Source of the DNA: a virus
Lineage: Duplodnaviria > Heunggongvirae > Uroviricota > Caudoviricetes
DNA: 64,000 bases
Strand: one strand, 5' to 3'
IMG/VR virus record: IMGVR_UViG_3300027721_000009
Span: 1-64,000 of that record
Positions within the stretch are counted from its first letter, which is position 1; each line of letters begins with the position of its first letter. Position numbers and translations under genes: made by a program. The notes under the pieces were generated by a model. It worked only from the letters and a program-made list of their open reading frames with translations, was not told the origin of the DNA and did no database searches. Shown here piece after piece: positions 1-45,821 of the stretch.

Positions 1-796
1 CGACACTACTCCGTTCCTGCACTCTAATGTGTACGGCACGGTGAACCTGTTGGATCAAATCAAGAACCATAGACCACAGTGCCACTTCATTCATGTCTCT
101 ACGGATGAAGTCTTCGGTTCGCTAGGTCTGAAAGACCCTGCATTCAACGAACAGACGGCATACGCGCCACGCAGTCCATACGCTGCATCCAAGGCAGCGA
201 GTGATCACTTTGTACGCGCATATGCTGCAACTCACGGACTCAAGGTAAACATCACCAATTGCTCCAACAACTACGGACCTTATCAGCATCCGGAGAAGTT
301 CATTCCTACGGTCATCCGTAAGAAACTGGCGGGTGAACGAATCCCGGTCTACGGCACCGGCATGAACATCCGTGACTGGCTGCATGTGGACGATCATGTG
401 GATGCGCTGATTGCCGTCCTTGAGCGTGGGCGCGTTGGTGAGCAATATTGTATCGGTGGTGGCACGCAGAAGACCAACATCGAAGTCGCGACCTCCATCA
501 TTGGCTGTCTCGGCGGATCCTTCGAAGAGATTGAATTCGTAACGGATCGCAAGGGACACGACTTCCGCTATGACATAGATAGTGATAAGCTCTATCTTCA
601 TACGGGTTGGAAGCCCACCGTGCCTTGGGTGCGCGGTCTGATTAGAACTGTGGATTGGTATGTCAATAACATTGAATGGGTGAAATCATGTCGAAATGCC
701 TCGGAATCATACTCGCAGGCGGCAAAAGCTCGCGCCTCTATCCCGCCACATTTGCTACGACCAAGCAAGTTCTCCCCATCTACGACAAGCCCCTGA
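1..796 (+). CDS. rfbB: dTDP-glucose 4,6-dehydratase (RmlB/RfbB), 3' portion; the gene begins upstream of the window
   Basis: Frame is open from nt 2. Extended-SDR catalytic motif YAASKAASDH, plus NCSNNYGPYQHPEKFIP and DWLHVDDH blocks typical of RmlB. The reported 3' end overlaps rfbA by about 110 nt, so the true stop is uncertain. Confidence 0.8.
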   Translation, partial: DTTPFLHSNVYGTVNLLDQIKNHRPQCHFIHVSTDEVFGSLGLKDPAFNEQTAYAPRSPYAASKAASDHFVRAYAATHGLKVNITNCSNNYGPYQHPEKFIPTVIRKKLAGERIPVYGTGMNIRDWLHVDDHVDALIAVLERGRVGEQYCIGGGTQKTNIEVATSIIGCLGGSFEEIEFVTDRKGHDFRYDIDSDKLYLHTGWKPTVPWVRGLIRTVDWYVNNIEWVKSCRNASESYSQAAKARASIPPHLLRPSKFSPSTTSP

Positions 797-1575
797 TCTA
801 TTATCCTCTGTCAACTCTCATGTTGGCAGGGATTCGGGATTTCGTAGTCATCACCACACCCGAAGAGCAATCGGTCTTCAAGACGTTGCTGTGGGATGCG
901 GAAGATCGCATGGGCATTAGAGTCTCGTTCGCTTCGCAGGACTTCCCTCGCGGCATTGCGGACGCATTCAATATCGTCACCGACCAGTACGACCTCACGG
1001 AAGAGTTCACTCGCTTCGCTCTAATTCTAGGCGATAACATCTTCTACGGTGCGGGAATGACCGAAATTCTACAAGAGGCTCGCCATGATGCCTCTACCAC
1101 CATACTAGCCGCAAAAGTGAAAGACCCCGAAAGATTCGGTGTTGTCACCATGGACGACCGTGGGCAAGTCATTGATCTGGAAGAGAAACCCAAGCACCCG
1201 AAGAGCGACTTAGCTATAACTGGAATTTACTTTTTCAATAAGTCGGTTTTTCAGCGAGCGAGGAAACTGCGTCCGTCTAATCGCAATGAGTTAGAAATAA
1301 CCGACCTTGTGAAAACATATTGGAAGGATGGCGCACTAACATGCATTAGACTGCCGCGTGGTTCCATCTGGTTCGACACCGGCACACCCGACTCGCTACT
1401 GGAAGCAGCAAATCTAATTCAGATGATACAGAAACATCAGGGTTTTGCTGTTGGCAATCCTCACGAAATCGCGTATAATAAAGGTTGGATTGAGCCTATC
1501 GCACTAAGACAAACCGCGCAGTTGTGCGAGAAGTCGGCGTATGGTCAGTACCTATTGAATCTCTTGGAGTCATAA
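676..1575 (+). CDS. rfbA: glucose-1-phosphate thymidylyltransferase (RmlA/RfbA)
   Basis: N-terminal GIILAGGKSSRLYP nucleotidyltransferase loop and RmlA-like pattern throughout (ITGIYFF...RGSIWFDTGT). Alternative start ATG at 688. Confidence 0.85.
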   Translation: MGEIMSKCLGIILAGGKSSRLYPATFATTKQVLPIYDKPLIYYPLSTLMLAGIRDFVVITTPEEQSVFKTLLWDAEDRMGIRVSFASQDFPRGIADAFNIVTDQYDLTEEFTRFALILGDNIFYGAGMTEILQEARHDASTTILAAKVKDPERFGVVTMDDRGQVIDLEEKPKHPKSDLAITGIYFFNKSVFQRARKLRPSNRNELEITDLVKTYWKDGALTCIRLPRGSIWFDTGTPDSLLEAANLIQMIQKHQGFAVGNPHEIAYNKGWIEPIALRQTAQLCEKSAYGQYLLNLLES

Positions 1576-2879
1576 TGAAACTTACACCTGAACAACGGCA
1601 CTTCTACATCCACGAACTCGCGAAGGAACTGCCGCCATGGGCGTACAACGCTAACGCGGAATTCGAACCGGGAAAGACTCCGGTGTTCTACTCCGGTCCC
1701 TACTTTGACCACCATGAGATTGAGGCTGCGCTAAAAGCATTCCTCACTGGCAAGTGGCTTGTCACAGGCGAAGAGGTCGCGAAGTTCCAGTGGAAGTTCG
1801 CACGCAAGTTTGGTGTGAAGTGGGCGCACATGGTCAACTCCGGTTCCTCTGCGAATCTGGTCATGGTCGCGGCTGCAAAGAAGTTCTTCGGTTGGAAGGA
1901 CGGCGCAGAAATCATCGTGTCGCCTGTGGGCTTCCCGACGACCATTGCGCCTATCGTGCAGAACGGCATGGTGCCGGTATTTGCCGATATCGAAATGGAC
2001 ACACTCAACTTCGATCTGGATGAAGTCGAGCGCAAGATCACCGAGAAGACCGTTGCAGTCTTCGTATCGCCTGTGTTGGGTAATCCGCCCGACATGGATC
2101 GTCTGCGTGAAATCTGCAACAATGCGCAGATCATCATGTTGGGTGACAACTGCGACTCGCTCGGAACTAAGTGGAATCATGAATGGCTGACGCACTATTA
2201 CGCCGCGTGGTCTACCTCATTCTATCCCGCACACCACATGACGACCGGCGAAGGTGGCATGGTGTGTTCCAACAACGAAGGAATCGTCAACTATGCACGA
2301 CAGTTCTCATGGTGGGGACGCGACTGCGTGTGCGTCGGTGCTGCCAATCTCAAACCCTGCGGATCTTGTGGAAATCGTTTTTCTCAGTGGCTCGCCCCGG
2401 AATACGAGGGAGTGGTCGATCACAAGTATCTGTTTACCCAAATGGGCTATAACCTCAAGCCTCTCGACTTCCAAGGAGCTATCGGCTCTGTACAATTAGA
2501 CAAGTTCGATGAGATTCACCTTCACCGAATGCAGTCCTATGACACCATTCGCGCCATCATCGAAACCTATGTGCCGGAAGTGACGGTAGTGGGTAATCTG
2601 GATGAAGCGGAAGTGAGTTGGTTTGGTGTGCCGATTCTGTGTGATAACGCGGATGTAAAGGTACGCTTGCAAGCACACTTCGAATCCAACAAGATTCAGA
2701 CGCGCAACTACTTCGCGGGTAACATTCTGCTCCATCCCGGCTACAAGCATCTGGATGACTACAAGAAGTATCCTAATGCGAATCAGGCTCTCGACCGAGT
2801 GTTCTTTGTGGGTGCAGCCCCGCACTACGGTCCAGAAATCTTCAACTGGTTTGAAACGGTGCTTTCGCAATGGACCTGA
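1575..2879 (+). CDS. DegT/DnrJ/EryC1/StrS-family PLP/PMP-dependent sugar 3-dehydrase/aminotransferase (RfbH/E1-like)
   Basis: TAATG overlap with rfbA. Fold-type I sugar aminotransferase blocks (HMVNSGSSANL, DNCDSLG) and a Cys cluster CGSCGNRF as in E1 dehydrases. Confidence 0.7.
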   Translation: MKLTPEQRHFYIHELAKELPPWAYNANAEFEPGKTPVFYSGPYFDHHEIEAALKAFLTGKWLVTGEEVAKFQWKFARKFGVKWAHMVNSGSSANLVMVAAAKKFFGWKDGAEIIVSPVGFPTTIAPIVQNGMVPVFADIEMDTLNFDLDEVERKITEKTVAVFVSPVLGNPPDMDRLREICNNAQIIMLGDNCDSLGTKWNHEWLTHYYAAWSTSFYPAHHMTTGEGGMVCSNNEGIVNYARQFSWWGRDCVCVGAANLKPCGSCGNRFSQWLAPEYEGVVDHKYLFTQMGYNLKPLDFQGAIGSVQLDKFDEIHLHRMQSYDTIRAIIETYVPEVTVVGNLDEAEVSWFGVPILCDNADVKVRLQAHFESNKIQTRNYFAGNILLHPGYKHLDDYKKYPNANQALDRVFFVGAAPHYGPEIFNWFETVLSQWT

Positions 2880-3724
2880 CCATCTATGGGCATACAGGAT
2901 TCGTCGGCAGTCATTACGTTCAGAAATACTGCCAGATAGACGACCTGTATCGTCCACCCCGCTATTCGCGTAGACCGAATCCGTACAAGAAAACGGATAT
3001 GCTGTATTTGATATCCACTACGCACAACTACCATGTCTTTGACGATCCGACTCTGGACGTAAAGACTAATCTGTTGGTGCTGACCGAAACCCTAGAGTCA
3101 TGGAAGAACAACAATCCACAAGGCACGTTCAATTTCGTGTCATCGTGGTTTGTCTATGGCGAACGGCGTGGCTTTGAGCGTGCGGGTAAGACGCGAGAAG
3201 ACGAGGATTGCCGCCCCGCAGGATTCTACTCTATCACTAAGCGGTGTGCCGAACAGTTGGTAGAATCCTTTTGCCAGACCCACAATCTGAGCTACCGCAT
3301 CCTGCGCCTCTGTAACATCCTAGGACCGGGAGACATGGGCGTTTCCGCTAAGAAGAACGCGCTCCAATACCTGATCAACGAAATGAAGGAAGATCGCCCA
3401 ATCTCCATCTACGGGACGGGTGAGTTTACCCGCACCTACATGGATGTGGATGATTGTGTTCGCGCACTCCGTCTGGTCATGGATCAGGGTGCCGAGAACA
3501 CCATCTTCAATATCGGCGTAGAACCTTCCCAACAGTTCCTAGACCTGATCAAACTGGCTCATGCCCTGTTGGAGAGCAAGTCCGAGATAAACTTCATCAA
3601 ACCTAAGAAGTTCCACCAACAGGTTCAGGTGGAAAACTTCGATATGGACTGCTCCAAGCTGCGCAGCCTAGGTTTTGAGCCGAAACATAGTATCGTTTCT
3701 ACGGTAGCTCGACTGTGTAAATAA
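2870..3724 (+). CDS. NAD(P)-dependent sugar epimerase/reductase (short extended SDR, RfbS/RfbJ-like)
   Basis: N-terminal GxxGxxG-like IYGHTGFVGS Rossmann motif and YxxxK-like YSITKRCAE. Sits directly after the dehydrase gene. Confidence 0.6.
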   Translation: MDLTIYGHTGFVGSHYVQKYCQIDDLYRPPRYSRRPNPYKKTDMLYLISTTHNYHVFDDPTLDVKTNLLVLTETLESWKNNNPQGTFNFVSSWFVYGERRGFERAGKTREDEDCRPAGFYSITKRCAEQLVESFCQTHNLSYRILRLCNILGPGDMGVSAKKNALQYLINEMKEDRPISIYGTGEFTRTYMDVDDCVRALRLVMDQGAENTIFNIGVEPSQQFLDLIKLAHALLESKSEINFIKPKKFHQQVQVENFDMDCSKLRSLGFEPKHSIVSTVARLCK

Positions 3725-3751: not shown

Positions 3752-4954
3752 GTGCGGAAGAAGATGCTCAAGTTTAGCCAGTTCATCATAGAGAATGTCG
3801 AGGACACAGCCCGACTCTCCCATCTGGAACATGCCGAAGACCATGTAATCAATGCCGGTTCTGCCGGTGTTCACCATGCTGTCCGGACAATGGTGGGCGT
3901 TCACCATAAGCTCATGGGGCATAACACCCCGGTCAAGCTAACCACTAAGTATGACGGTGCGCCGTCCATCGTCTTCGGGCATCACCCCGAGACTAAGAAG
4001 TTCTTTGTCGCGTCCAAGTCGGCATTCAACAAGACTCCTAAGATCAATTACAGCCACGACGACATTGACCGCAATCATGGTCATGCTCCCGGTCTGGCAT
4101 CCAAGCTCAAGACCGCTCTCGACCATCTTCCCAAGGTCACTCCAAAGGGTAAGGTCTATCAGGGTGACGTAATGTACACCAAGGATGATGTGAAGTCCAC
4201 CGAGACTCACCACTCCTTCAAGCCAAACACGATCAAGTATTCGATCAAGAAGGATACGCCGACCGGTCAGAAGGTGTCTAAGGCGCACATTGGCGTGGCA
4301 GTCCACACCGAGTACCACGGTGAAGATCACCACTCCCTCAAGGCGAGCTTCGCTCCCGATACTTCGGACTTCAAGGATCACCCGGATGCACACATCATCG
4401 GAACCCACACTAACGCACGCGCTGCTGACTATAAGCCAAAAGATAGAGTCAAATTCTTCAACCATATCAAGAAAGCAAAAGACGCAGCTTCTAACCAGTC
4501 TTTTGACCATCTTGATCACCCTGTCCGTGAACATGTCAAGACCTACATCAACCACACTGTTCGCAGTGGAACTACTCCGTCTGTCAGTGGACTCTCAGCC
4601 CATGTCCAAGCGAAGCACGAAGCTAAGAAAGCTCTTGTCAAAGGTGGGGCTACCAAAGCTCGCATCGAAGGTGAGAAGCAGTCTCATCTGGCTCATATCC
4701 AATCTCATAAAGAAGCCTTTGGAAATACTCTTGCGGTTCATAAGCACCTTGCCGGTGCCAAGCACGTTCTTGTTAAGGCTCTCGCAAAGTCTGATGAATT
4801 TGAACACCACATTGGCGAAAAGGAATCGGGTCCGGAAGGGCATGTAGCCATCGTCGGTTCTAAGCCTACTAAGCTCGTTGACCGTGGCGCAGGCGGGTTT
4901 GCTTCGGCTAACCTGAATGCCGGTGGAATCAAGGGCTTAAAGAAACCTAAATAA
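3752..4954 (+). CDS. hypothetical His/Lys-rich basic protein
   Basis: 400-aa ORF with strong His/Lys bias. GTG start at 3752 or ATG at 3764. No recognisable family. Confidence 0.5.
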   Translation: MRKKMLKFSQFIIENVEDTARLSHLEHAEDHVINAGSAGVHHAVRTMVGVHHKLMGHNTPVKLTTKYDGAPSIVFGHHPETKKFFVASKSAFNKTPKINYSHDDIDRNHGHAPGLASKLKTALDHLPKVTPKGKVYQGDVMYTKDDVKSTETHHSFKPNTIKYSIKKDTPTGQKVSKAHIGVAVHTEYHGEDHHSLKASFAPDTSDFKDHPDAHIIGTHTNARAADYKPKDRVKFFNHIKKAKDAASNQSFDHLDHPVREHVKTYINHTVRSGTTPSVSGLSAHVQAKHEAKKALVKGGATKARIEGEKQSHLAHIQSHKEAFGNTLAVHKHLAGAKHVLVKALAKSDEFEHHIGEKESGPEGHVAIVGSKPTKLVDRGAGGFASANLNAGGIKGLKKPK

Positions 4955-4985
4955 TCAAGTCGGAAATTACCCACAGAGCGGTACA

Positions 4986-6248
4986 ATGTCTCACGCAACT
5001 TTCACCTTCGGACGCTTCAATCCTCCCACCGAATCCGGTCATGGGAAGCTAGTCTCGGCTGTCCAGAAGCACGCCGAAGAGAAAGGCGGATCGCACTACA
5101 TCTTCCCATCCCACTCTCAGGATCCGAAGAAGAACCCTCTTTCCCATGGCGATAAAGTCCATGCGATGAAGAAGATGTTCAAGGGTGCCAACATCGTATC
5201 CCACCCCGACGTAAAGAACGCAATTCATGCCCTCAAGCATCTTGAATCTAAGGGACATACACACGCTACCATGGTTGTAGGTGATGACAGAGTGCATGAA
5301 TTCCATAAGCTACTCCATGCCTACAACGGCAAGGAATACAACTTCAAGAAGATCGAAGTCAAGTCCGCAGGACACCGGGATCCAGACGCAGAGGGATCTG
5401 AGGGAATGTCCGCATCCAAGCTTCGTGGGCTGGTCAAGAGCGGCAAGCGCGACGAATTTATTTCTCACTACTCCGACAAGAAGCTCGGTGCACACATTCA
5501 TGACAAGGTGAAAGCAAACATGTCCGAATCCAAGGCAATGTTCATTCTCGGCGGTCCCGGCAGTGGCAAGGACTACGTGATCAACAATATCCTCAAGCGA
5601 TACGATCTGGTCGAAGTCCAGATGGATCAGATTCTCAACGGCGCAGTGAAGCCATTGATCGAACAGGGAGCCGACCTCCTGATCAACGGTAATGCGGATC
5701 AGGACAAGATTCAGCTTGTCAAGAGCATTCTTGAGAATTATTCGTTCTCTCACACGGTTGTCTCGGTCACTAACAAGGTGTCGCGTGAACGCAACGCCAC
5801 TCGCGACCGTCCGTTGTCAGAGCAGACTCGCATTCGTAAGTGGTTGGATTGTGAGAACATTTCTCTATCCAACTCATTCATCTTCAAGAACTCATTGAAC
5901 TTAGTAGAAGCCTCTCATGCCGAACTGAAAGGATTTCAGGATCAGATCGAAGGCTATCTCAAGTTCCTTCAAGACAACAAGTTCCACACCCTCGCAGAAG
6001 TGCTAGAGTGGGGAACCGATGAAACCGTGGCTGCGTACAAGGGTGGCACTCCCGGTCAAGTAGACGTAAAGCCTAAGCTCACGATGAACAAGCTTCGCAA
6101 GCGTGGTGTGAAGGGAATGCCGCCTAACGCATATGACTCTCGCGTAGGTGGTGTCCAGTACACTAACTATGCAGGCGGTGGCTCGTACACTGGCGGCGCA
6201 TTTGGTGGTCTAGTCTCTAGCTATCAGCACAATAAGAAGGTACTCTGA
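4986..6248 (+). CDS. two-domain protein: N-terminal (H/T)xGH nucleotidyltransferase-like domain fused to a P-loop nucleotide/nucleoside kinase domain (NadR-like architecture)
   Basis: N-terminal FGRFNPPTESGH and later SASKLR resemble the HxGH and ISSTxxR motifs of NMNAT/cytidylyltransferase folds. Mid-protein FILGGPGSGKDYV is an adenylate-kinase-type Walker A. Gly-rich C-terminal tail. Confidence 0.45.
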   Translation: MSHATFTFGRFNPPTESGHGKLVSAVQKHAEEKGGSHYIFPSHSQDPKKNPLSHGDKVHAMKKMFKGANIVSHPDVKNAIHALKHLESKGHTHATMVVGDDRVHEFHKLLHAYNGKEYNFKKIEVKSAGHRDPDAEGSEGMSASKLRGLVKSGKRDEFISHYSDKKLGAHIHDKVKANMSESKAMFILGGPGSGKDYVINNILKRYDLVEVQMDQILNGAVKPLIEQGADLLINGNADQDKIQLVKSILENYSFSHTVVSVTNKVSRERNATRDRPLSEQTRIRKWLDCENISLSNSFIFKNSLNLVEASHAELKGFQDQIEGYLKFLQDNKFHTLAEVLEWGTDETVAAYKGGTPGQVDVKPKLTMNKLRKRGVKGMPPNAYDSRVGGVQYTNYAGGGSYTGGAFGGLVSSYQHNKKVL

Positions 6249-8210: not shown

Positions 8211-8211
8211 C

Positions 8212-11603: not shown

Positions 11604-11605
11604 TC

Positions 11606-12091
11606 ATGAAGCTATCGAAGTATTTCACTCTGGAAGAGTTCTGTAAGTCACAGACTGCCGTTCGCAAGGGCATCAACAACATGCCACCAGCCGAGTTCGC
11701 AGACGAACTGATTGGGAACATGCGTGCGCTCGCTCGCAACGTACTGGATCCGATTCGCGAGAACTATGCTCGACCAGTGATTCTGTCATCCGGCTTTCGC
11801 AGCCCTGCTCTGAACAAAGCCGTCAACGGATCCGCCAAGTCTCAGCACTGTTGGGGCGAAGCCGCAGACACCGAAGTACAGGGCATTGGCAATCCTACGC
11901 TCGCACGGTGGATCATCAAGAACGTGGAGTTCGATCAGGTCATCCTTGAGTTCTACAATCCACTGGAAGGACCGAACTCCGGATGGGTTCACGTATCTCA
12001 TGTACGCAATCGCCCAAACCGTCGCAAGGTCACGACCGCAATCATTCGCGGTGGTAAGACAGTGTACCTCGACGGGTTGGTGTTGCAATGA
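11606..12091 (+). CDS. peptidase M15-family cell-wall hydrolase (L-Ala-D-Glu / D,D-carboxypeptidase-like)
   Basis: SGFRSP...SQHCWGEAAD...H zinc-ligand arrangement typical of peptidase_M15. Confidence 0.7.
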   Translation: MKLSKYFTLEEFCKSQTAVRKGINNMPPAEFADELIGNMRALARNVLDPIRENYARPVILSSGFRSPALNKAVNGSAKSQHCWGEAADTEVQGIGNPTLARWIIKNVEFDQVILEFYNPLEGPNSGWVHVSHVRNRPNRRKVTTAIIRGGKTVYLDGLVLQ

Positions 12092-17431: not shown

Positions 17432-19318
17432 ATGACTTCACGCCTACCATCCATCTATCAGGATTACATCCACATTTCCCGTTACGCACGCTACCGCGAC
17501 GATCTAGGTCGCCGGGAGACTTGGGATGAAACGGTTGATCGCTACCTCAACCACTTCAAGAAGTTCACGAACAACAACAAGAAAATCCCATGGGATGAAC
17601 TCCGCGAAGGAATCCTGAACCTAGAAGTCATGCCATCCATGCGTGCGCTGATGACGGCAGGACCGGCACTAGAGAAGGATCAGGTCGCAGGCTACAATTG
17701 CTCGTATGCAGTCATCGACAACCCCAAGGTCTTTGATGAAATCATGTACATCCTCATGTGCGGCACCGGAGTCGGCTACTCAGTCGAGTCTCGCTACACA
17801 AACAAACTTCCGGAGATTCCAGATGAAATCCACGAAACAGAAACAACCATCGTCGTCCGTGATTCAAAGATTGGGTGGGCAACCGCATATCGTGAATTTA
17901 TCTCTCTGCTCTATTCCGGTAAACTTGCTCGCTATGACGTATCTAAGGTGCGAAAGGCGGGTGAACGACTTAAGACGTTTGGTGGGCGTGCTTCTGGTCC
18001 CGAGCCTCTTGCTGACCTATTCGAATTCACTCGACAGGTCTTTCAGAAGGCTAGAGGAAGAAAGCTTACAACGCTAGAGTGTTCCGATATCGTCTGTAAG
18101 GTTGCGGATATCGTGGTTGTCGGTGGTGTTCGCCGCTCCGCATTGATCTGCCTCTCCGACCTGAACGATGACTATCTACGTAACGCGAAGTCTGGTCAGT
18201 GGTGGGTATCCGATCCGCATCGTCAGCTTGCGAATATCTCCGCAGTGTACGAGCGCAAGCCATCCATGGAAACATTCATTCGCGAATGGGTTGCTCTCTA
18301 CAACTCCAAGTCTGGTGAACGTGGTATCTTCTCGCGTGAAGCTTCGCAGCTTGTCGCTGCCAAGTACGGCAGACGCGACGAGAACATCGACTATGGTACG
18401 AATCCTTGCTCTGAAATCATTCTGCGTCCAGACCAGTTCTGTAATCTCAGTGAAGTGGTTGTGCGTGCGGAAGATGATCTTGCAACCCTCGCACGCAAAG
18501 TCACACTCGCAACGATTCTCGGCACACTCCAAGCCACGCAGACTAACTTCCGTTATCTGTCTAAGCGTTGGAAGAACAACACGGAAGAGGAAGCACTTCT
18601 CGGTGTGTCGCTGACGGGCATCATGGACAATCCCCTGATGAACAGTCCGGTGAATGGATTAGCTGATAACCTGAGTAGGCTGCGTGAGATTGCCGTCAAT
18701 GTCAACAAGCAATACGCGAAGATCCTCGGCATCAATCAAGCCGCAGCCATCACTTGTGTCAAGCCATCCGGCACCGTGTCGCAGCTAGTCGATTCCGCAT
18801 CCGGTATTCATCCTCGCTATGCTCCGTACTACATTCGGCGCGTGCGTGGTGACAAAAAAGATCCACTCGCAGACTTCATGGTATCCCACGGCTACACCGC
18901 AGAGGATGACTTCTATGGTGCGCAGCGTTGGGTCTTCGGATTCCCTCAGAAGGCTCCCGAAGGCGCAGTGGTCACTGCCAACGTAACCGCGATTCAGCAG
19001 TTGGAACTGTGGAAGGTCTATCAGGAACATTGGTGCGAACACAAGCCGTCGATCACGGTCTACGTGGGCGACGATGAATGGATGGAAGTTGGCGCATGGG
19101 TCTACAAGAACATCGACACTCTATCCGGCGTATCGTTCCTGCCGCGTGACACCGGCAGCTACCGTCAGGCTCCGTATGAGGAAATCACGGAAGAGAAGTA
19201 CAACGAACTGGTCGCGGCGCAACGCCTAGATATTGATTGGACTCAGTTCCGTGAAGGCACCGACAATACTGAGAGTGCCAAGACTTTAGCATGTGTTGCG
19301 GGAGTATGTGAAATCTAA
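17432..19318 (+). CDS. ribonucleotide reductase, single-chain; probably class II (NrdJ-like)
   Basis: TNPCSEIIL...CNLSEV active-site region. No adjacent beta-subunit gene. Confidence 0.6.
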   Translation: MTSRLPSIYQDYIHISRYARYRDDLGRRETWDETVDRYLNHFKKFTNNNKKIPWDELREGILNLEVMPSMRALMTAGPALEKDQVAGYNCSYAVIDNPKVFDEIMYILMCGTGVGYSVESRYTNKLPEIPDEIHETETTIVVRDSKIGWATAYREFISLLYSGKLARYDVSKVRKAGERLKTFGGRASGPEPLADLFEFTRQVFQKARGRKLTTLECSDIVCKVADIVVVGGVRRSALICLSDLNDDYLRNAKSGQWWVSDPHRQLANISAVYERKPSMETFIREWVALYNSKSGERGIFSREASQLVAAKYGRRDENIDYGTNPCSEIILRPDQFCNLSEVVVRAEDDLATLARKVTLATILGTLQATQTNFRYLSKRWKNNTEEEALLGVSLTGIMDNPLMNSPVNGLADNLSRLREIAVNVNKQYAKILGINQAAAITCVKPSGTVSQLVDSASGIHPRYAPYYIRRVRGDKKDPLADFMVSHGYTAEDDFYGAQRWVFGFPQKAPEGAVVTANVTAIQQLELWKVYQEHWCEHKPSITVYVGDDEWMEVGAWVYKNIDTLSGVSFLPRDTGSYRQAPYEEITEEKYNELVAAQRLDIDWTQFREGTDNTESAKTLACVAGVCEI

Positions 19319-20142
19319 TGCTTAATGAACTACAGAATGATATGCCGAATGTGTTTGAAAACACCTTGAAGGGTTTCCCTACGGTTCGCTACATTTCCCT
19401 CAAGGAAAGTGTGAACCGCAGGAACTTCATGAAGCAGCAATTGGACATGTATGGGATCCCACACCGTCCATTCATCGTGGATCGCTATTCAGAAATCAAA
19501 GATAGCGTTGATGTGAACGTAATTCCAGAAAGCGCAAGATTCGCATTGTCACCATTGCAGATCGGCTGCGCAATATCTCAAATCGAAAACATGAGAGATT
19601 GGTTGGATAACACCGACGAAGAATATGTCATCTTCTGTGATGACGATATGAACTTCGATAGTATTTTCTATTGGACGTTTACGTGGAAAGAGTTTGTCGA
19701 GAACCTTCCGCCTAACTGGAATATCATCCAGTTGATCCGTATGGATGATAGCGAAGAACTCTACGGTGTGAATCTCAAGTTGCAACACGGTAGGTTTTGG
19801 GGAACCGCACGCCTGATGAACCGTGGATCCGTGGAATGGCTGTTGGGCATCCTACAGAATCCAGACGGCTCATACAATCTGGTTGCCAATGGTGGAGAGT
19901 TCATGCCCATTGTGGAGAACGTCCTCTTCCTCAATCTCCCTAGAGTGTACAACTTCCCACTACTCACCGAGTTCAACAACGAGAATCTGAACTCTACGGG
20001 ATTGGTATACATAGATGATAGCGAGAAAGAGAACCATCTTAAGTCCAAGGCGCGGTGTAAGTATTACAACTACGTCATCGACAAGCGATGGGAATTGATG
20101 GGTAAGTATGTAAACATCCGTGAGGCGTTAGCAATACCATGA
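19318..20142 (+). CDS. glycosyltransferase family 25
   Basis: GT25-like N-terminal region (ISL...S..RR) and a DDD motif. Confidence 0.6.
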   Translation: MLNELQNDMPNVFENTLKGFPTVRYISLKESVNRRNFMKQQLDMYGIPHRPFIVDRYSEIKDSVDVNVIPESARFALSPLQIGCAISQIENMRDWLDNTDEEYVIFCDDDMNFDSIFYWTFTWKEFVENLPPNWNIIQLIRMDDSEELYGVNLKLQHGRFWGTARLMNRGSVEWLLGILQNPDGSYNLVANGGEFMPIVENVLFLNLPRVYNFPLLTEFNNENLNSTGLVYIDDSEKENHLKSKARCKYYNYVIDKRWELMGKYVNIREALAIP

Positions 20143-21125
20143 ACCTAGTGTACAAAGCCTTGAATGCGGGTGGGTCAATCCATCCGCTTATCATCCCTAA
20201 TGAGTTTCCTACCAACGGCACGGCTCAACTGAATCCCTCTGTCTACGTCGATGGTGGTGATATCCTCACCACTATTCGGCACTGTCAGTACACCATCGTC
20301 CATTCGGAGAAGGGTAAGTTCCAACACCAGTGGGGTCCGTTGACGTATCTCTGTCCGGAAGATGACCTGACGTTGACCACAACTAACTACCTCGCGAAGC
20401 TGAATGCTGATCTGACGATCAAGGACATTCGCAAGGTGGACACTGCCATTCACGACAAGAAACCCATTTGGGAATTCGTCGGTCTGGAAGACGCTCGCCT
20501 GTTCCGTTGGGACGGCAAGCTTTACCTCTGTGGTGTGCGGCGTGACACCACAACGAATGGTCAGGGGCGCATGGAACTCTCCGAAGTCCAATACACTTCG
20601 GATGGAATCAAGGAAGTCACACGTTGGCGCATCCCCGCTCCCGGTCTAGATAACACGTACTGCGAAAAGAACTGGATGCCGATTCTCGACATGCCATTCC
20701 ATTTCGTGAAGTGGAGTAACCCGACCGAAATCGTCAAGGTCGATCCGGTCAAGAAGACCTGTGAAGTGGTATTCCAGAGTGATCGTGTTGTCGAAGCACC
20801 GTATGAGTATCGCGGCGGGAGTCATGTGATTCCGTTTGGTGACTATCGCATTGCTGTAGCTCACGTTCTCACTAAGTTCTGGCGCAACCCTGACGGGCGC
20901 AAGGATGCGACCTATCGCCACTGCTTCATCGTTTGGGATAAGGATTGGAACGTGGTTCGCTATGGCGCACCATTCTCATTCATGGATGCTGAGATTGAAT
21001 TCTGTTGTGGTATGGCTGAACACGATGGGAACTTCCTACTCAGCTTCGGCTATCAAGATAATGCCGCGTTTGTGGTCAAGGTACCGAAGCGCGTAATTGA
21101 GGGGTATGTAAGTGGACGTAACTAA
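20139..21125 (+). CDS. hypothetical protein (possibly glycan-active)
   Basis: 328-aa ORF, ATGA overlap, no motif assigned. Confidence 0.45.
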   Translation: MNLVYKALNAGGSIHPLIIPNEFPTNGTAQLNPSVYVDGGDILTTIRHCQYTIVHSEKGKFQHQWGPLTYLCPEDDLTLTTTNYLAKLNADLTIKDIRKVDTAIHDKKPIWEFVGLEDARLFRWDGKLYLCGVRRDTTTNGQGRMELSEVQYTSDGIKEVTRWRIPAPGLDNTYCEKNWMPILDMPFHFVKWSNPTEIVKVDPVKKTCEVVFQSDRVVEAPYEYRGGSHVIPFGDYRIAVAHVLTKFWRNPDGRKDATYRHCFIVWDKDWNVVRYGAPFSFMDAEIEFCCGMAEHDGNFLLSFGYQDNAAFVVKVPKRVIEGYVSGRN

Positions 21126-23121
21126 ACTAACCGCAGCGATTACGAAGTACATTCGCGACACCGAGAATGCTGAACTCAACTATCAGATCGCTCTGATCTA
21201 CGAAGAGCTAAAGCAAACGTCAGCCGCTATCGGGTTCTTCCTGCGTGCGGCTGAACGCACCAACGACATGAATCTAGCCTACGAGTGCTTGCTCAAGGTG
21301 GGTCTGTGCTTCGAACGCCAGACGCGCCGCAACAACACCGTGCGCGTGTTCTACAAGCACGCAGTCCTGTTGCTGCCTAAGCGTCCGGAAGCCTACTTCC
21401 TGCTATCGCGTTTCTATGAGCGCACTCTAGATCGTGTCTCCGGATACCTCTATGCGCAGCAGGGGCTAGACTTCGCAGACTTCAATCAGGTTCCGCTCCG
21501 TGGCTACGTTGAGTATCCCGGTAAGTACGGACTGATCTTTGAGAAGATGGTCTGTTCATGGTGGTGGGGTAAGGTTGACGAGTGCCGTGCGCTACTCGTA
21601 GAACTGCGCGACAAGTACAAGTATGTCATGGACGGTGTACATATCGGAGCCGTCCAGAACAATCTGAACATGTTGGGTGTCACGGCAGAGTCACACGTAC
21701 TGCGTCCGTACAAGATTTGGCAGAAGTCTCAGTTGCGTTACAAGTTCAAGGATTACGATAAGATCTACCGCAACTTCTCTCAGGTCTATCAGGACTTGTT
21801 CACCCTCTCCATGCTCGACGGCAAGCGCAATGGCACGTATCTGGAAATCGGCACTGCCGGTCCAGATCACGGCAACAATACCAAACTCCTAGAAGAGTTG
21901 GGTTGGACGGGTGTGGGTATCGAATGGGATAAGAACCTTGCCGCATCCTACGCTGCCGCTCGCAAGAACCCTGTACTCAATCAGGATGCACTCAAGACGG
22001 ATTACATCGAACTCACTCAGAAGATTGCGGTCAATGGTGTGATCGACTACCTACAGTTGGACTGCGAACCCGCATCCACGACCTACGAAATCATGACACG
22101 CATTCCGTTCAACCTGATCAAGTTCGCCGTCATCACGTATGAGCATGATGACTACGTGGACATGACGGGACAGTACCGGAACCTGTCGCGTGCGTTTCTG
22201 CGCGAGCGTGGCTACGAACTCGTAGTCTCGGATATCTCACCAGACGGCGTATCCAACTTCGAAGACTGGTGGGTACATCCTGACCTAGTGAGCAAGGATA
22301 TCATCCGCGCTATGAAGGATACCTCCAATCGCACTAAGCACGCCACGGAGTACATGCTCTCGGAGCCGTTCATTGAATTCAAGCCAGAAGAAGTAAATGG
22401 GTTGGACACCACAAACAACGATCCAACTTTCACCTCTTGTCTTCTCCGCGAAGTAATCACGGAGAGAATCTATGAACGGTATCGTTCAGTTCAGGATGGT
22501 GATGTTGTGGTTGATCTTGGGGCTAACATCGGGCTATTCCCATGGTCATTCAAGAACAAGCTTTACGGACGAGCGGGTGCGCTTGTGGTCGCGGTAGAAC
22601 CATCACCATCACTCATCCCCACACTTACCAACAACATGTCTAAATTGATTGCTCCTACAAAGGTATTCAACTATGCGATTGGTGGAACTACGGAAGAGCG
22701 CAAGGTAACTGACACCGATTGGCTTGCGGGTGACGTTCCCATTGGAAGCACGCTAAAGGTCAAGACGTTCAAGGACTTCCTTGCGGACGCGCAACTAGAG
22801 AAAATCGACTTCCTTAAGGTTGATGTTGAGGGTGCCGAATACGATATCTTCACCGAAGAGAACTACGAGTTCCTGACTAAGAACGTCAAGTATATCACTG
22901 GCGAGTGGCATCTGAGTTATGCGGAAGATGGACTAAACAAGTTCATCAACTTCAAGAACCTCTACCTGAAAGGCAAGAACAACTTCCGTGTGTTTGAACC
23001 GTATGATTGGAGAGAAGTAACCCACAAGATTCTGGACGATGCATACCTCCACGAATTCTACAACTGGCGCAATCCACGTAACAAGGGTGCGCAGTTCATG
23101 GTCTATATCGACAACGGGTGA
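21112..23121 (+). CDS. TPR-like N-terminus plus two FkbM-family methyltransferase domains
   Basis: Two Methyltransf_21-like segments (LEIGTAGPDHGNNT...; VVDLGANIGLF...AVEPSP). GTG start. Confidence 0.6.
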   Translation: MDVTKLTAAITKYIRDTENAELNYQIALIYEELKQTSAAIGFFLRAAERTNDMNLAYECLLKVGLCFERQTRRNNTVRVFYKHAVLLLPKRPEAYFLLSRFYERTLDRVSGYLYAQQGLDFADFNQVPLRGYVEYPGKYGLIFEKMVCSWWWGKVDECRALLVELRDKYKYVMDGVHIGAVQNNLNMLGVTAESHVLRPYKIWQKSQLRYKFKDYDKIYRNFSQVYQDLFTLSMLDGKRNGTYLEIGTAGPDHGNNTKLLEELGWTGVGIEWDKNLAASYAAARKNPVLNQDALKTDYIELTQKIAVNGVIDYLQLDCEPASTTYEIMTRIPFNLIKFAVITYEHDDYVDMTGQYRNLSRAFLRERGYELVVSDISPDGVSNFEDWWVHPDLVSKDIIRAMKDTSNRTKHATEYMLSEPFIEFKPEEVNGLDTTNNDPTFTSCLLREVITERIYERYRSVQDGDVVVDLGANIGLFPWSFKNKLYGRAGALVVAVEPSPSLIPTLTNNMSKLIAPTKVFNYAIGGTTEERKVTDTDWLAGDVPIGSTLKVKTFKDFLADAQLEKIDFLKVDVEGAEYDIFTEENYEFLTKNVKYITGEWHLSYAEDGLNKFINFKNLYLKGKNNFRVFEPYDWREVTHKILDDAYLHEFYNWRNPRNKGAQFMVYIDNG

Positions 23122-23124: not shown

Positions 23125-23814
23125 ATGGAGTATGTGTTTAAGGGTGATTATGAATTCACGACCGATTGGTTTTCGAAGCACACGGTTCTATGGAACGCTA
23201 TCATCACAAAGTTTCAGCCACACAGGATTCTTGAAATCGGGAGCTTCGAAGGTCGCTCTACAATCCATCTTGTCGAAAAGATTAGAAAGCAGAGCAACGC
23301 TCCGATAGAGATTGTCTGTATTGATACGTGGCAGGGTGGCGCGGAACATGCCGGGATTGATTTCGATTCGGTCGAAGGTCGATATGACCGGAACATGAAG
23401 AAACTGGTTGACTCCACATACGATTTATCCATCTGGAAGAAGAAGAGATTGTCTTCGGTCGCTCTTGCCGAATTGTTGATTGAAAACGGTGCCAAGTTCG
23501 ATTTCATCTACATTGACGGATCGCACCTCGCAGCAGACGTATTTCTAGACGCTGCCCTCGCGTTCCAACTCCTGAGAGTTGGTGGCGTATTGATATTCGA
23601 TGACTATGCGTATGGCGACGAGGATTCAAAGAAAGATGCGTTCAATCACCCACATATTGCCATAGACGCATTCATTGAAGTGTATGGCAACAAGCTCTCA
23701 CTAATCCCATTTAAGACGACGGGTGATGATGGTGAAATAGAAGATCTACGAGAAGTTGTAATAAAGAAAGGGCTGTTGTTCTATCAGATGTATCTCACCA
23801 AAGCAGCCGACTAA
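23125..23814 (+). CDS. class I SAM-dependent methyltransferase (CmcI/TylF-like)
   Basis: ILEIGSFEGRST...FIYIDGSH...LIFDDY pattern. Confidence 0.65.
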   Translation: MEYVFKGDYEFTTDWFSKHTVLWNAIITKFQPHRILEIGSFEGRSTIHLVEKIRKQSNAPIEIVCIDTWQGGAEHAGIDFDSVEGRYDRNMKKLVDSTYDLSIWKKKRLSSVALAELLIENGAKFDFIYIDGSHLAADVFLDAALAFQLLRVGGVLIFDDYAYGDEDSKKDAFNHPHIAIDAFIEVYGNKLSLIPFKTTGDDGEIEDLREVVIKKGLLFYQMYLTKAAD

Positions 23815-25030: not shown

Positions 25031-26011
25031 ATGGGAAAGCGATATATTGTGACAGGTGGCGCGGGATTCCTCGGTAGCCATCTGTGTGAAAGATTGATTG
25101 AGTTGGATGAAACCTGTAAGGTCTTTGCGGTGGATAACCTGTCATCTTCGGATGGCACCAATCTACCGAAGCTTCGCAAGTATGGCTACAACCGTTTCGA
25201 ATTCGTAGACATGGATGTTTGCGATAAGATGACATGGGAAACGCTTGATGATCATGGTCCGTATGACGGCATCTTCAATCTAGCCTGCCCCGCTTCGCCG
25301 CCGTTCTATCAGAACATGCCCATCCAGACGACACTCACCTGTGTCCTAGGAGCGAATTATGCCTTGGCATACGCAACGAAATGGGGAGCTAAGATTCTCC
25401 AAACATCTACTTCGGAAGTTTACGGTGATCCAGAGGTACATCCTCAACCGGAAGAGTACCGAGGTAGCGTCAATTGTTTCGGTCCAAGAGCGTGCTATGA
25501 TGAAGGTAAGCGAGCGGCTGAAGCCCTCTTCTTCGACTACCAGAAGCAAAGCGGTACGGATATTCGCGTGGTCCGCATTTTCAATACTTACGGTCCTCAC
25601 ATGCTTGCTAATGATGGGCGCGTGGTGACAAACTTCATCAATCAGGCACTCAGGGGCGAAGACATTACCATCTACGGTGACGGCACACAGTCACGTTCCT
25701 TCTGTTACGTCGAAGACCTTATCAATGCCATCATGATTGTCTGGAAGTCAAATTACAAGTCGCCGGTCAATATCGGCAATCCAAAAGAGTATACGATGCT
25801 TGAATTGGCTGATGCTGTAATTAAAATTACAGGCAATAAGTCTAATTTGATTTACCACTCGCTCCCGGTAGACGATCCATTACAACGATGCCCTGACATT
25901 TCTCTAGCGAAATCATTGGGTTGGGGTGGACCGCGAATTGAGCTTGACGAGGGGCTACGGAATACTGTACAATACTTCCTGTATAAAGCGTTTTCTACGC
26001 CGAGGGTTTGA
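25031..26011 (+). CDS. UDP-glucuronate decarboxylase (UDP-xylose synthase-like extended SDR)
   Basis: VTGGAGFLGSHL Rossmann motif and UXS-type catalytic block PRACYDEGKRAAE. Confidence 0.75.
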   Translation: MGKRYIVTGGAGFLGSHLCERLIELDETCKVFAVDNLSSSDGTNLPKLRKYGYNRFEFVDMDVCDKMTWETLDDHGPYDGIFNLACPASPPFYQNMPIQTTLTCVLGANYALAYATKWGAKILQTSTSEVYGDPEVHPQPEEYRGSVNCFGPRACYDEGKRAAEALFFDYQKQSGTDIRVVRIFNTYGPHMLANDGRVVTNFINQALRGEDITIYGDGTQSRSFCYVEDLINAIMIVWKSNYKSPVNIGNPKEYTMLELADAVIKITGNKSNLIYHSLPVDDPLQRCPDISLAKSLGWGGPRIELDEGLRNTVQYFLYKAFSTPRV

Positions 26012-42342: not shown

Positions 42343-42416
42343 GCAAAGGTCGTCTAACGGTTTAGGATACTAGACTTTCAATCTGGAAGATGCGGGTTCG
42401 AATCCCGTCCTTTGCT
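42343..42416 (+). tRNA. tRNA-Glu (anticodon TTC), CCA encoded
   Basis: Hand-folded cloverleaf; T-loop GGTTCGAATCC. Confidence 0.7.
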
Positions 42417-42611: not shown

Positions 42612-42618
42612 CCAACAT

Positions 42619-42876: not shown

Positions 42877-42884
42877 CCAACAAC

Positions 42885-42958: not shown

Positions 42959-42966
42959 CCAATCAT

Positions 42967-45206: not shown

Positions 45207-45821
45207 TCAACACGGATCGTATCTGTAATCCAAGCGATACAGGTCTTCGATCCCGCGTCTTAGATCGTCGGTAACAACGAGGTCTGTTATGAAGTTCGGC
45301 TTCTCGTTCTCAACGGGAATGTCGATTGCCGTATCACCACCGAAGATGCCGATAAGTCTTCTGGCTTCCGATTCGAAGTCATGATAGTTGAGTACGTTCA
45401 TGTTCGGATGGTCAAACCATGCGGACTGCGGCTTGAAGCCGAGAATGTTAGTGCGGTTGATCCGCTCCAACAAATCCACCGGCTGACGATTGATCTTCTC
45501 TCTTAGGTGTTGCGGCAGCGCGTTGAATGACTCTTCATCCAATGGCTCTGGCATGACGACACCAGAGAAGTCTTCCGGAAAAAGTTTGAACAGGACGGTT
45601 CGATACGTGCGCAGAAAGTTGTACGTGGATACGAAACGTTCTACAGGGTCGCGCCAGAAAGCGTAACCCGTCAGTGCTAAATACGCGGGACTTGGAGTGT
45701 CATGAATGTGAACAGCAACATTCGTCCCAAGCGGTCTTAGCAGATTTCGAATGGTAGTCGAACCAGTCTTCGGCACCAGATAGAAAATGTATTTGTTATC
45801 GTGACTGACGATCATACTCAT
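45207..45821 (-). CDS. sulfotransferase-family protein (the only convincing minus-strand gene in the window)
   Basis: N-terminal YLVPKTGSTT (5'-PSB, PAPS-binding-like) and a later RDP... region. Inserted inside the tRNA array. Confidence 0.6.
   Translation of the reverse strand: MSMIVSHDNKYIFYLVPKTGSTTIRNLLRPLGTNVAVHIHDTPSPAYLALTGYAFWRDPVERFVSTYNFLRTYRTVLFKLFPEDFSGVVMPEPLDEESFNALPQHLREKINRQPVDLLERINRTNILGFKPQSAWFDHPNMNVLNYHDFESEARRLIGIFGGDTAIDIPVENEKPNFITDLVVTDDLRRGIEDLYRLDYRYDPC

Follow-up and report, generated by a model that had tools for sequence, protein, structure and literature searches.

Dehydratases that combine PMP with an iron-sulfur cluster have previously been known only in bacteria, where they serve O-antigen and antibiotic pathways. 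In Salmonella and Yersinia, CDP-3,6-dideoxyhexoses are made by RfbF/DdhA, RfbG/DdhB, RfbH/E1/DdhC, and RfbI/E3/DdhD, followed by RfbJ/RfbS/AscE-F, such that a nucleotidyltransferase, a 4,6-dehydratase, a PMP/[2Fe-2S] 3-dehydratase, and an SDR 4-reductase act in turn. In actinomycetes, the dTDP-4-keto-2,6-dideoxyglucose 3-dehydratases of the SpnQ/UrdQ type act downstream of RmlA/RmlB-type dTDP enzymes and have no dedicated E3, with electrons coming from general ferredoxin or flavodoxin systems (PMC8987622). ColD, the GDP-4-keto-6-deoxymannose 3-dehydratase of the colitose pathway, has the DegT fold and a histidine in place of lysine but lacks Fe-S cysteines, and its PMP is regenerated with glutamate. 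Lastly, several T4-like cyanophages (S-H68, S-B05, S-B43, RN05-S, S-SCSM1, and P-SSM2) carry glycan (“LPS”) islands, whose genes published work takes to modify the host surface (PMC9602691, PMC7824862).

Here, we describe a gene cassette related to these systems, located at one end of a 64,000-nt stretch of phage DNA (“the window”). Family models and PDB matches, with E-values far beyond chance, confirm that nucleotides 1–3724 hold four predicted plus-strand genes, apparently translationally coupled: a partial RmlB, an RmlA, an E1/RfbH-type 3-dehydratase, and a short extended SDR (SDR4) (Table 1). The identities, positions, and strand given in the preliminary description of this DNA are borne out; scores against the RfbH, RmlA, and RmlB models all fall under the NCBIfam equivalog cut-offs. 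The 3′ tail of the rmlB-like gene (~36 codons) extends into rmlA, rmlA and the E1 gene overlap by 1 nt (TGATG), and the E1 and SDR4 genes overlap by 10 nt. As read from sequence, the four genes form an operon-like cassette that we predict, giving this an even chance, to make a dTDP-activated 3,6-dideoxyhexose during infection. The unusual feature is a dTDP route without 2-deoxygenation enzymes; we found no report of a dTDP-3,6-dideoxyhexose in the searchable literature.

Table 1. Predicted genes of the cassette and of the other candidate glycan-related loci in the window.
Feature	Position	Strand	Basis and remarks
rmlB-like dTDP-glucose 4,6-dehydratase	2..796	+	TIGR01181, motifs; 5′-truncated by window edge
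rmlA-like glucose-1-phosphate thymidylyltransferase	688..1575	+	TIGR01207, 1MC3; alternative ATG at 676
E1/RfbH-type PMP + [2Fe-2S] NDP-4-keto-6-deoxyhexose 3-dehydratase, long-loop clade, 434 aa	1575..2879	+	RfbH model, 3BCX, residues, tree
Short extended SDR (SDR4), 284 aa; putative NAD(P)H-dependent 4-ketoreductase on E1 product	2870..3724	+	Pfam Epimerase, motifs, AF2
Candidate glycosyltransferase, weak call; possible user of phage-made sugar	19318..20142	+	GT25, phrog_2835
TPR region, divergent methyltransferase-like region, and FkbM methyltransferase domain	21112..23121	+	TIGR01444, Pfam
Methyltransf_24 class I methyltransferase	23125..23814	+	Pfam, 62 bits
UDP-glucuronate decarboxylase (UDP-xylose synthase), separate nucleotide-sugar enzyme	25031..26011	+	302 bits to human UXS1 (second-best family, 116 bits)
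Sulfotransferase-like ORF, in gap of tRNA array	45207..45821	-	Pfam Sulfotransfer_2

In the proposed pathway, RmlA would convert glucose-1-phosphate and dTTP to dTDP-glucose, and RmlB would convert dTDP-glucose to dTDP-4-keto-6-deoxy-D-glucose. The E1-like enzyme would form a PMP Schiff base at C4, with the active-site histidine taking the C4′ proton and the 3-OH being expelled; the glucoseen intermediate would then be reduced by two single electrons via the enzyme’s own [2Fe-2S] cluster. In contrast to the CDP pathway, neither an E3 reductase nor a ferredoxin is encoded as a partner. Because there is no phage-encoded E3, electrons would presumably be supplied by the host, through ferredoxin/FNR or flavodoxin/reductase, as for SpnQ, which is the precedent for electron supply without an E3 (PMC8987622). 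SDR4 would reduce dTDP-4-keto-3,6-dideoxyglucose at C4, yielding a paratose-like or abequose-like dTDP sugar, and a glycosyltransferase of the phage or the host may then transfer the sugar to a glycan of the host envelope or to a protein of the virion. The substrate nucleotide, the electron donor, and the acceptor in this scheme are those that we infer.

The preliminary description had staked its reading of the E1-like protein in advance on the distinction from DegT aminotransferases, and the protein has a histidine rather than the lysine and all of the Fe-S cysteines. Its motifs run DNCD ... FYPAHH ... RDCVCVGAANLKPCGSC ... SWF, and the equivalents of C193, D194, Y217, H220, C251, C253, C261, and F345 are all kept, matching the Salmonella/Yersinia E1 in the catalytic His, Asp194, Tyr217, Phe345, and four Cys ligands. 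These signature residues are present in every member of the clade and missing from two plain aminotransferases (L011 and L012). A plain DegT aminotransferase is ruled out by the replacement of the PLP lysine by His, the four [2Fe-2S] cysteines, and Asp194/Tyr217/Phe345. The protein scores 335 bits against NF011936 (RfbH; E 6e-100; below the cut-off of 423) versus 124 bits for the best aminotransferase model, and it matches PDB 3BCX (E1 dehydrase) with E 3e-63. The score to ColD is 152 bits, compared with 217 bits to E1 and, unlike ColD, the phage protein keeps the four cysteines.

The phage protein is nevertheless distinct from RfbH, with which it shares 32% identity: its cysteine loop is four residues longer (CxCx11C vs CxCx7C), and the longer loop occurs together with the PAHH motif in 120 of the 120 closest database homologues. 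Phylogenetically, the phage E1 clade stands apart (100% bootstrap) from CDP-type RfbH, from the Streptomyces dTDP-type (SpnQ-like) proteins, and from ColD. The Streptomyces proteins, which have the same His and Fe-S motifs, are 33–36% identical to the phage E1 and group with CDP-type RfbH. Of the RfbH, ColD, and SpnQ clades named earlier as alternatives, the protein falls in none. Nor are E1-type enzymes fed solely by CDP sugars, as had been taken to be the norm, since SpnQ-type actinomycete homologues use dTDP sugars (PMC8987622; Streptomyces loci).

SDR4 matches the Pfam Epimerase family (E 7e-31). Its GxxGxxG, SSWFVYG, and YSITK motifs do not vary among 32 homologues, and the Asp-Glu pair found in 4,6-dehydratases is missing from it. 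The AF2 model (pLDDT 89) matches the fold of SDR sugar enzymes, the RMD reductase among them, and the cofactor domain is shortened, as in RmlD and RMD; besides reductases, the fold also matches epimerases and dehydratases. No match of the abequose synthase RfbJ to the SDR gene of the window was reported by tblastn at E 1e-6. We infer both the role of SDR4 and its stereochemistry.

Gene order in related phages connects the E1-like enzyme to RmlB and RmlA. In all 17 related phage loci with an E1 at least 66% identical, E1 is immediately preceded by RmlB-type and RmlA-type genes, and in none of them does CDP-type RfbF/RfbG adjoin E1. This invariant synteny backs the earlier proposal that the dTDP route feeds the dehydratase. 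The relatives’ RmlB-type proteins are 45% identical to Salmonella RfbB and their RmlA-type proteins 46–56% identical to RfbA, as opposed to 22–25% identity to RfbG/RfbF where a CDP-type match is reported at all. An SDR gene directly follows E1 in each of the 14 loci that reach that far, with L022 excluded. In L022, RmlB-RmlA-E1 is kept and RmlC-like and RmlD-like genes replace the SDR, as one would expect were the RmlB product the substrate of E1 and the tailoring steps variable. In L027, the same four genes have the order RmlA-SDR-E1-RmlB, flanked by GT2, Methyltransf_24, and GT1 genes. The conserved cassette contains no glycosyltransferase.

The window cassette shares its first two steps and enzymes with the dTDP-L-rhamnose pathway (RmlABCD), but has neither RmlC nor RmlD, and its RmlA is followed by an inserted E1-type 3-dehydratase. 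RmlA, RmlB, and a 4-reductase suffice for a 6-deoxyhexose, and L022 amounts to a complete RmlABCD-like set with an E1 inserted. It is therefore conceivable, although unlikely, that RmlA, RmlB, and the SDR alone make a dTDP-6-deoxyhexose (D-quinovose/D-fucose), with the E1-like protein acting on another, host-supplied NDP-sugar, or as a 4-aminotransferase that yields dTDP-4-amino-4,6-dideoxyglucose. The lack of an encoded E3 or ferredoxin fits this alternative, as does the aminotransferase activity of SpnQ without reductase (PMC8987622). However, a transaminase needs neither the four Fe-S cysteines nor the His-for-Lys replacement, and both are strictly kept in homologues spanning 54–97% identity; moreover, the E1 gene is apparently translationally coupled, lies between rmlA and the SDR gene, and always occurs together with RmlB/RmlA in the related phage loci.

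A less probable alternative is that the enzymes use another nucleotide (UDP or CDP) despite their RmlA/RmlB-like sequences, giving, e.g., a CDP- or UDP-3,6-dideoxyhexose. The RmlB-like product comprises the C-terminal ~230 residues of a dTDP-glucose 4,6-dehydratase, with the N-terminus outside the window. It scores 309 bits against TIGR01181 (model positions 94–319 of 321; E 3e-92) but only 48 bits against the CDP-glucose dehydratase model, has the STDE and YAASK (YxxxK) catalytic motifs, and is 44% identical to Salmonella RfbB; no CDP-type RfbG match to this region was reported by tblastn at E 1e-6. The RmlA-like protein shares 47% identity with Salmonella RfbA. It can be aligned over its full length with thymidylyltransferases (270–282 bits; 282 bits for E. 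coli RffH, 1MC3), and it retains the base-contacting Gln in the AxQxxPxGxAxAF base-binding segment. CDP-type RfbF and RfbG proteins show 22–26% identity wherever they gave a match. By sequence, both enzymes are of the dTDP type, unlike those of the CDP pathway, even though the RmlA score against TIGR01207 is slightly under the cut-off (348 vs 360.65 bits), RmlA variants with bound UDP-glucose exist in the PDB, and in cyanophage relatives the partner of an RmlB-like gene is a small cytidylyltransferase. The long-loop clade as a whole is probably not uniformly dTDP-dependent, given the differing gene contexts of other members: a GMD-like dehydratase (L024), a small cytidylyltransferase (cyanophage S-H68), or a lone GT1 partner (cyanobacteria).

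The cyanophage islands encode a long-loop E1 (56% identical), an RmlB-like protein (50% identical), and an SDR4-like protein (40% identical). Their genes are dispersed over a 15-kb island that also holds many glycosyltransferases, an RmlC-like epimerase, and the small cytidylyltransferase, whereas in the window the four genes form a compact cassette in which RmlA is canonical and next to which no glycosyltransferase lies. The source of the cassette is a large freshwater phage. Phage origin is supported by PolB, UvsX, and a DnaB-like helicase directly upstream of the cassette in relatives, by DUF6267, which is common to this phage, T4-like cyanophages, HTVC008M, and Melnitz, and by an array of 35 tRNAs inside the window. 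The cassette lies in a replication/nucleotide-metabolism region, flanked by the DnaB-like helicase and DUF6267 and close to ThyX and RNR. This location would suit a sugar that hypermodifies the DNA of the phage instead of decorating a glycan or protein, a reading that we consider very improbable: neither a hydroxymethylase nor any base-modifying enzyme was detected, the presence of ThyX points to normal thymidine, the known cases of DNA glycosylation draw on UDP sugars, and in L027 and cyanophages the same enzymes occur amid glycan genes of the usual GT2, GT1, and GT11 kinds.

Typical aquatic hosts, whether Gram-negative or cyanobacterial, would not be expected to carry a 2,3-dehydratase and a 3-ketoreductase, i.e., the enzymes of 2-deoxygenation. 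The 2,3,6-trideoxyhexose raised as an alternative in the preliminary description, which would require these enzymes from the host or from elsewhere in the phage genome, is the least probable product of all: Streptomyces E1 homologues do act downstream of both (PMC8987622; Streptomyces loci), and every one of the Streptomyces loci has genes for an NDP-hexose 2,3-dehydratase and for a Gfo/Idh/MocA 3-ketoreductase, but neither is present in the 64-kb window or ~30 phage loci (tblastn, 1e-6), and the phage E1 lies outside the Streptomyces clade. With E3, ferredoxin, 2,3-dehydratase, and 3-ketoreductase all missing, a dTDP-3,6-dideoxyhexose is the best-fitting product.

The phage had also been credited with a wider toolkit for building and decorating glycans, which holds in part. 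The assignment of the UDP-xylose synthase is clear, those of the glycosyltransferase and the sulfotransferase are weak, and nothing ties the toolkit genes, 15–41 kb away, to the cassette. The candidate glycosyltransferase scores 22.9 bits against Pfam GT25, under the cut-off of 24, and 94 bits against phrog_2835 (“glucosyltransferase”), with no PDB sequence match and no relatives in IMG/VR. The sulfotransferase assignment is marginal (31 bits against Sulfotransfer_2, cut-off 22; no NCBIfam match). Of two FkbM domains proposed at 21112, one is clear (residues 465–603; TIGR01444, 62 bits; Pfam, 51.5 bits), and the protein also has a divergent methyltransferase-like middle region, which weakly resembles Methyltransf_23 and contains an IDxLxxDxE-like motif. 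The class I methyltransferase at 23125 belongs to Methyltransf_24; the Methyltransf_24 gene that flanks the cassette in L027 is a different gene.

The four genes at the left end of the window are arranged in the same orientation, with intergenic space nearly absent. The product of the first gene, rmlB-like, matches TIGR01181 with 309 bits across positions 94-319 of the 321-position model, i.e., two-thirds of it, versus 48 bits for the CDP-glucose dehydratase model, and the STDE and YAASK active-site motifs of an extended SDR are visible in it. The N-terminal third of this protein lies outside the window; the locus of one relative (L001) has a full-length homologue with 82% identity. Exact searches with the window's RmlA and SDR proteins matched no contig; the region 5' of the window is seen only through such relatives, and their conserved ORFs upstream of rmlB have no meaningful Pfam match. 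RmlA scores 348 bits against TIGR01207, for which the cut-off is 360.65, and aligns end-to-end with about 20 solved thymidylyltransferases at 270-282 bits, with the base-contacting Gln kept. In the window (676-796) and in six relatives (L001, L013, L015, L020, L031, and L034), the rmlB stop codon that would follow "...WVKSC" is lost. The read-through ORF enters rmlA by 103-109 nt and gains a low-complexity tail of ~36 residues. The stop codon is at its usual site in the more distant L014, L018, L021, L022, and L002.

Features of the cassette and of other regions of the window
Feature	Position	Strand	Remarks
rmlB-like dTDP-glucose 4,6-dehydratase	from 2; 5' end beyond window edge	+	C-terminal two-thirds; TIGR01181
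rmlA-like glucose-1-phosphate thymidylyltransferase, short form	688-1575	+	TIGR01207
E1-like protein gene	1575-2879	+	start ATG shares one base with rmlA stop
Extended SDR, 284 residues	2870-3724	+	10-nt overlap with E1-like gene
DUF6267 protein gene and the gene after it	3752-6248		DUF6267 product has K-Y-D-G motif resembling motif I of ligases and nucleotidyltransferases
Three consecutive Lys-/His-rich, highly basic proteins	6250-9774		no Pfam match
Peptidase_M15_3 protein	11606-12091		candidate lysis enzyme
Glycoside hydrolase 19-domain protein	13392-14129		candidate lysis enzyme
GT25 candidate glycosyltransferase	19318		below Pfam threshold; phage glucosyltransferase PHROG at 94 bits
TPR repeats + FkbM protein	21112		one clear FkbM domain; divergent methyltransferase-like middle region
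Methyltransf_24 protein	23125
UDP-xylose synthase	25031		302 bits to human UXS1, clear
35 tRNA genes	42343-48796	+	nearly all amino acids covered
Sulfotransferase-like ORF	45207-45821	-	passes Pfam cut-off weakly; in gap of tRNA array

The third gene encodes the E1-like protein, a predicted 3-dehydratase. Among curated models, RfbH ranks first (335 bits, E 6e-100), and the equivalog cut-off of NF011936 (423 bits) is not reached; judged by its sequence, the protein is a relative of RfbH and not an equivalog. The highest score from an aminotransferase model is 124 bits. Among solved structures, the best match is the Yersinia E1 dehydrase 3BCX (E 3e-63), with ColD at 1.5e-43. The FYPAHH motif of the E1-like protein aligns with FYPAHH of wild-type 3BCX, the H220K mutant 3BB8 reading FYPAKH at this site. 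We aligned the protein with about 20 homologues from phages, two from Streptomyces, ColD, and the RfbH proteins of Salmonella and four other proteobacterial sources. All clade members have His at the position of Yersinia E1 His220, where it replaces the PLP-binding Lys; two aminotransferase-like outliers (L011 and L012) have Lys. Equivalents of Cys193, Asp194, Tyr217, His220, Cys251, Cys253, Cys261, and Phe345 are kept throughout the clade, the window protein included. Asp194, Tyr217, and Phe345 are reportedly dehydrase-specific, with His in all three positions in aminotransferases (Smith et al. 2008). All four cysteines of the E1 [2Fe-2S] ligand motif, C-X57-C-X1-C-X7-C, are present, with candidate cluster-ligand cysteines in the sequence CGSC. 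The cysteine loop carries a clade-wide insertion of four residues, giving CxCx11C as opposed to the CxCx7C of E1, and the longer spacing is found in all 120 of the closest database proteins. The preliminary description had assigned the protein to the E1/RfbH type, as opposed to a plain DegT aminotransferase with the PLP-binding Lys and no Fe-S cysteines. That assignment holds; the plain aminotransferase reading is out, since the His and the cysteines are present. A ColD-type enzyme would combine His for Lys with no cluster cysteines; these cysteines are absent from ColD-like sequences, whereas the phage protein keeps them.

The E1-like protein is about equally far from both Fe-S types, with 32-34% identity to CDP-type RfbH and 33-36% to the Streptomyces proteins. 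A bootstrapped neighbor-joining tree splits the long-loop proteins, i.e., those with CxCx11C, from L032, classical RfbH, the Streptomyces proteins, and ColD-like sequences with 100% bootstrap support. The long-loop side includes the window, phage contigs, cyanophage S-H68, and a Fibrobacteres MAG. L032, a viral outlier with 40% identity, falls on the other side, and the Streptomyces proteins are placed with CDP-type RfbH, across the split from the phage clade. This topology is provisional, since the tree is distance-based and was built from few references without authentic SpnQ. Phylogeny had been suggested as a way of sorting the protein among RfbH, ColD, and SpnQ clades; in this tree it instead falls in the long-loop clade, apart from RfbH, the Streptomyces proteins, and ColD-like sequences, a comparison in which SpnQ itself is absent. 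Automatic annotation names long-loop proteins either "CDP-...-3-dehydrase" or generic aminotransferase, and both labels are probably misleading.

The dTDP feed that had been proposed for E1 is supported by its RmlA/RmlB-type neighbors and by synteny. In 17 of 17 loci where E1 is at least 66% identical, the genes immediately before it are of RmlB and RmlA type, these loci being metagenomic or from IMG/VR and including some near-duplicates. In 14 loci the SDR gene comes next after E1; of the other three, two end too early and the third is L022, described below. In all 17 loci, the cassette occupies one constant site, between a DnaB-like helicase and DUF6267. Contigs of 94-172 kb are available for this phage clade. 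The relatives' RmlB- and RmlA-type genes have 45% and 46-56% identity to Salmonella RfbB and RfbA, respectively, and only 22-25% identity to RfbG/RfbF where tblastn reported any match. RfbF and RfbG have no tblastn match in the window at E 1e-6, and those reported in relatives reach only 22-26% identity. With RfbA/RfbB-type neighbors in place of RfbF/RfbG, i.e., the wrong partner enzymes, the CDP route was rejected.

Two reference patterns are available for comparison. In the first, proteobacterial rfbH genes on plasmids adjoin rfbF (cytidylyltransferase) and rfbG (CDP-glucose dehydratase), several of them with an E3-type reductase. Unlike this CDP-3,6-dideoxyhexose (ddh/rfb/asc) system, the phage cassette has no RfbF, RfbG, or dedicated E3 (RfbI/AscD); tblastn with Salmonella or Sphingomonas E3 gave no match in the 64-kb window or any phage locus. 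Similarly, there is no Fer2 or FNR-type Pfam domain among about 70 window ORFs, and a scan of the window for the plant-type ferredoxin Cys pattern was negative. In the second pattern, Streptomyces rfbH-like genes are found with rfbA, rfbB, an NDP-hexose 2,3-dehydratase, and a Gfo/Idh/MocA ketoreductase, a locus type that corresponds to the SpnQ situation (PMC8987622). The phage cassette shares the SpnQ-type feed of a predicted dTDP-glucose synthase and dTDP-glucose 4,6-dehydratase, but its E1-like protein does not group with the actinomycete homologues, and neither the 2,3-dehydratase nor the 3-ketoreductase has a homologue in the window or in the phage loci. With these two enzymes missing from the loci searched, the trideoxy route was rejected, and with it the 2,3,6-trideoxy sugar that the preliminary description had offered as a second possible product. 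Thus, neither reference pattern fits the phage cassette.

The SDR belongs to a family of 3271 homologues at E 1e-5, with all listed members at about 230-310 residues; GxxGFxGS, SSWFVYG, and FYSITK are invariant among 32 homologues. The Ser/Thr-Tyr-Lys triad is present, the Asp-Glu pair of 4,6-dehydratases is absent, and the cofactor domain is shortened. An AlphaFold model (pLDDT 89) has a confident SDR fold, which Foldseek matches about equally to epimerases, dehydratases, and the RMD 4-reductase. A 4-ketoreductase role for the SDR is inferred from pathway logic, from its replacement by RmlC-like and RmlD-like genes in L022, and from its position after RmlB-RmlC in cyanophages.

Taken in order, the cassette would act as follows. 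RmlA would convert glucose-1-phosphate and dTTP to dTDP-glucose, from which RmlB would form dTDP-4-keto-6-deoxyglucose. The long-loop E1 would then carry out a PMP/[2Fe-2S]-dependent 3-deoxygenation, drawing its electrons, like SpnQ, from ferredoxin or flavodoxin systems of the host, and the SDR would reduce C4 to give a dTDP-3,6-dideoxyhexose. We regard this five-step scheme, as a whole, as evenly balanced between right and wrong. The main rival, which we consider unlikely, is that the E1-like protein is off the path of the RmlB product or is a transaminase, in which case the cassette would make a 6-deoxy or 4-amino sugar. Two variant loci bear on this choice. In L022 (IMGVR_UViG_3300022562_000051, a viral contig of 172 kb; 11311-12643), RmlB-RmlA-E1 is kept and RmlC-like and RmlD-like genes replace the SDR, which hints at either a 3,6-dideoxy sugar of L configuration or a side route to rhamnose. 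In L027, the order is RmlA-SDR-E1-RmlB, flanked by GT2, Methyltransf_24, and GT1 genes. Such modular behavior, with a variable tailoring end, is what an E1 acting on the RmlB product would be expected to show. We give lower odds to the use of another nucleotide, to a trideoxy product, and to DNA modification.

NDP-hexose 3-dehydratases are described for three substrates: CDP-4-keto-6-deoxyglucose, GDP-4-keto-6-deoxymannose, and dTDP-4-keto-2,6-dideoxyglucose (PMC8987622). Building on the dTDP-3,6-dideoxyhexose scheme, a broader proposal is that the long-loop proteins form a fourth class, that the phage enzyme uses dTDP-4-keto-6-deoxyglucose directly with host electrons to make the first dTDP-3,6-dideoxyhexose, and that abundant freshwater T4-like phages use it to remodel the host envelope or their own virions. 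This proposal is tentative, and we think it somewhat more apt to fail than to hold.

The long-loop spacing is carried by 14 of the 150 best representatives at 50% identity clustering, most of the top-scoring ones included, which suggests a compact family. The family also occurs outside phages, in Fibrobacterota and cyanobacteria (Allocoleopsis franciscana and an Oscillatoriophycideae MAG). These bacterial members come from the protein search; a contig scan with an exact peptide pattern gave only one close bacterial relative. In two cyanobacteria (L042 and L043; 8001-10800), the long-loop E1 pairs with a GT1 glycosyltransferase gene. In one viral lineage, represented by L024 (5259-9145), its neighbors are a GMD-like 4,6-dehydratase and an RmlD-like reductase of short length, and in cyanophages RmlB-like and RmlC-like genes accompany it, together with a small cytidylyltransferase. 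The L024 and cyanobacterial contexts indicate that the long-loop clade is not tied to a single nucleotide. Given the other partners of distant long-loop proteins, the dTDP assignment applies to this phage clade and not to the whole family. Some long-loop homologues are 580-917 residues long. One of these (P0237) carries Hint/intein Pfam domains, and four longer ones (P0380, P0382, P0383, and P0392) each have two matched stretches. From their sequences, these over-long homologues probably come from phage sugar dehydratase genes interrupted by inteins.

3,6-Dideoxyhexoses are classic antigenic determinants. To our knowledge, they are made only by CDP routes (abequose, paratose, tyvelose, and ascarylose) or a GDP route (colitose), and the only E1-type enzymes that we know to act on dTDP sugars belong to antibiotic producers, where 2-deoxygenation comes first. 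A full-text literature search, with much subscription literature outside its reach, found no dTDP-3,6-dideoxyhexose pathway. Similarly, a literature text search for dTDP-4-keto-3,6-dideoxy sugars, dTDP-paratose, dTDP-abequose, and dTDP-ascarylose returned nothing relevant. As read from the predicted genes, the enzymes are familiar, the combination is new, and its carrier is a widespread uncultured phage clade. If the predicted pathway is real, the nucleotide-sugar map would gain a compact dTDP route that works without a reductase of its own, in uncultured freshwater phages of a widespread clade. The four-gene cassette could be useful for glycoengineering, and phages would have a specific, testable means of altering cell-surface or virion glycans.

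The wider glycan toolkit that had been listed for this phage is retained in part. UDP-xylose synthase, Methyltransf_24, and one FkbM domain are confirmed; the second FkbM domain is not, the GT25 assignment is sub-threshold, and the sulfotransferase is weak. The GT25-like protein had no relatives in the IMG/VR scan. The toolkit genes lie 15-41 kb from the cassette, with lysis genes, ThyX, and RNR in between. Phage glycan genes have been treated as host-surface modifiers (PMC9602691, PMC7824862), and by this analogy we take the host surface, by default, as the putative acceptor of the cassette sugar.

Several other features of the window were recorded. The candidate lysis enzymes sit between the cassette and the ThyX/RNR genes (11606-14129). 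A pooled scan, which places families at region level only, found an NAD salvage set at about 26000-64000, comprising NAMPT with its N-domain, NUDIX, and a cytidylyltransferase-like NMNAT. The same region has an RNA ligase, an ATP-dependent DNA ligase, HNH endonucleases, SPFH/Band_7, a 2OG-Fe(II) oxygenase, and DUF2828/DUF7788. The gene after DUF6267 encodes a HIGH-type nucleotidyltransferase with a P-loop domain. These two genes always follow the sugar cassette in relatives, and they match the two halves of phrog_455, indicating that they are fused in other phages.
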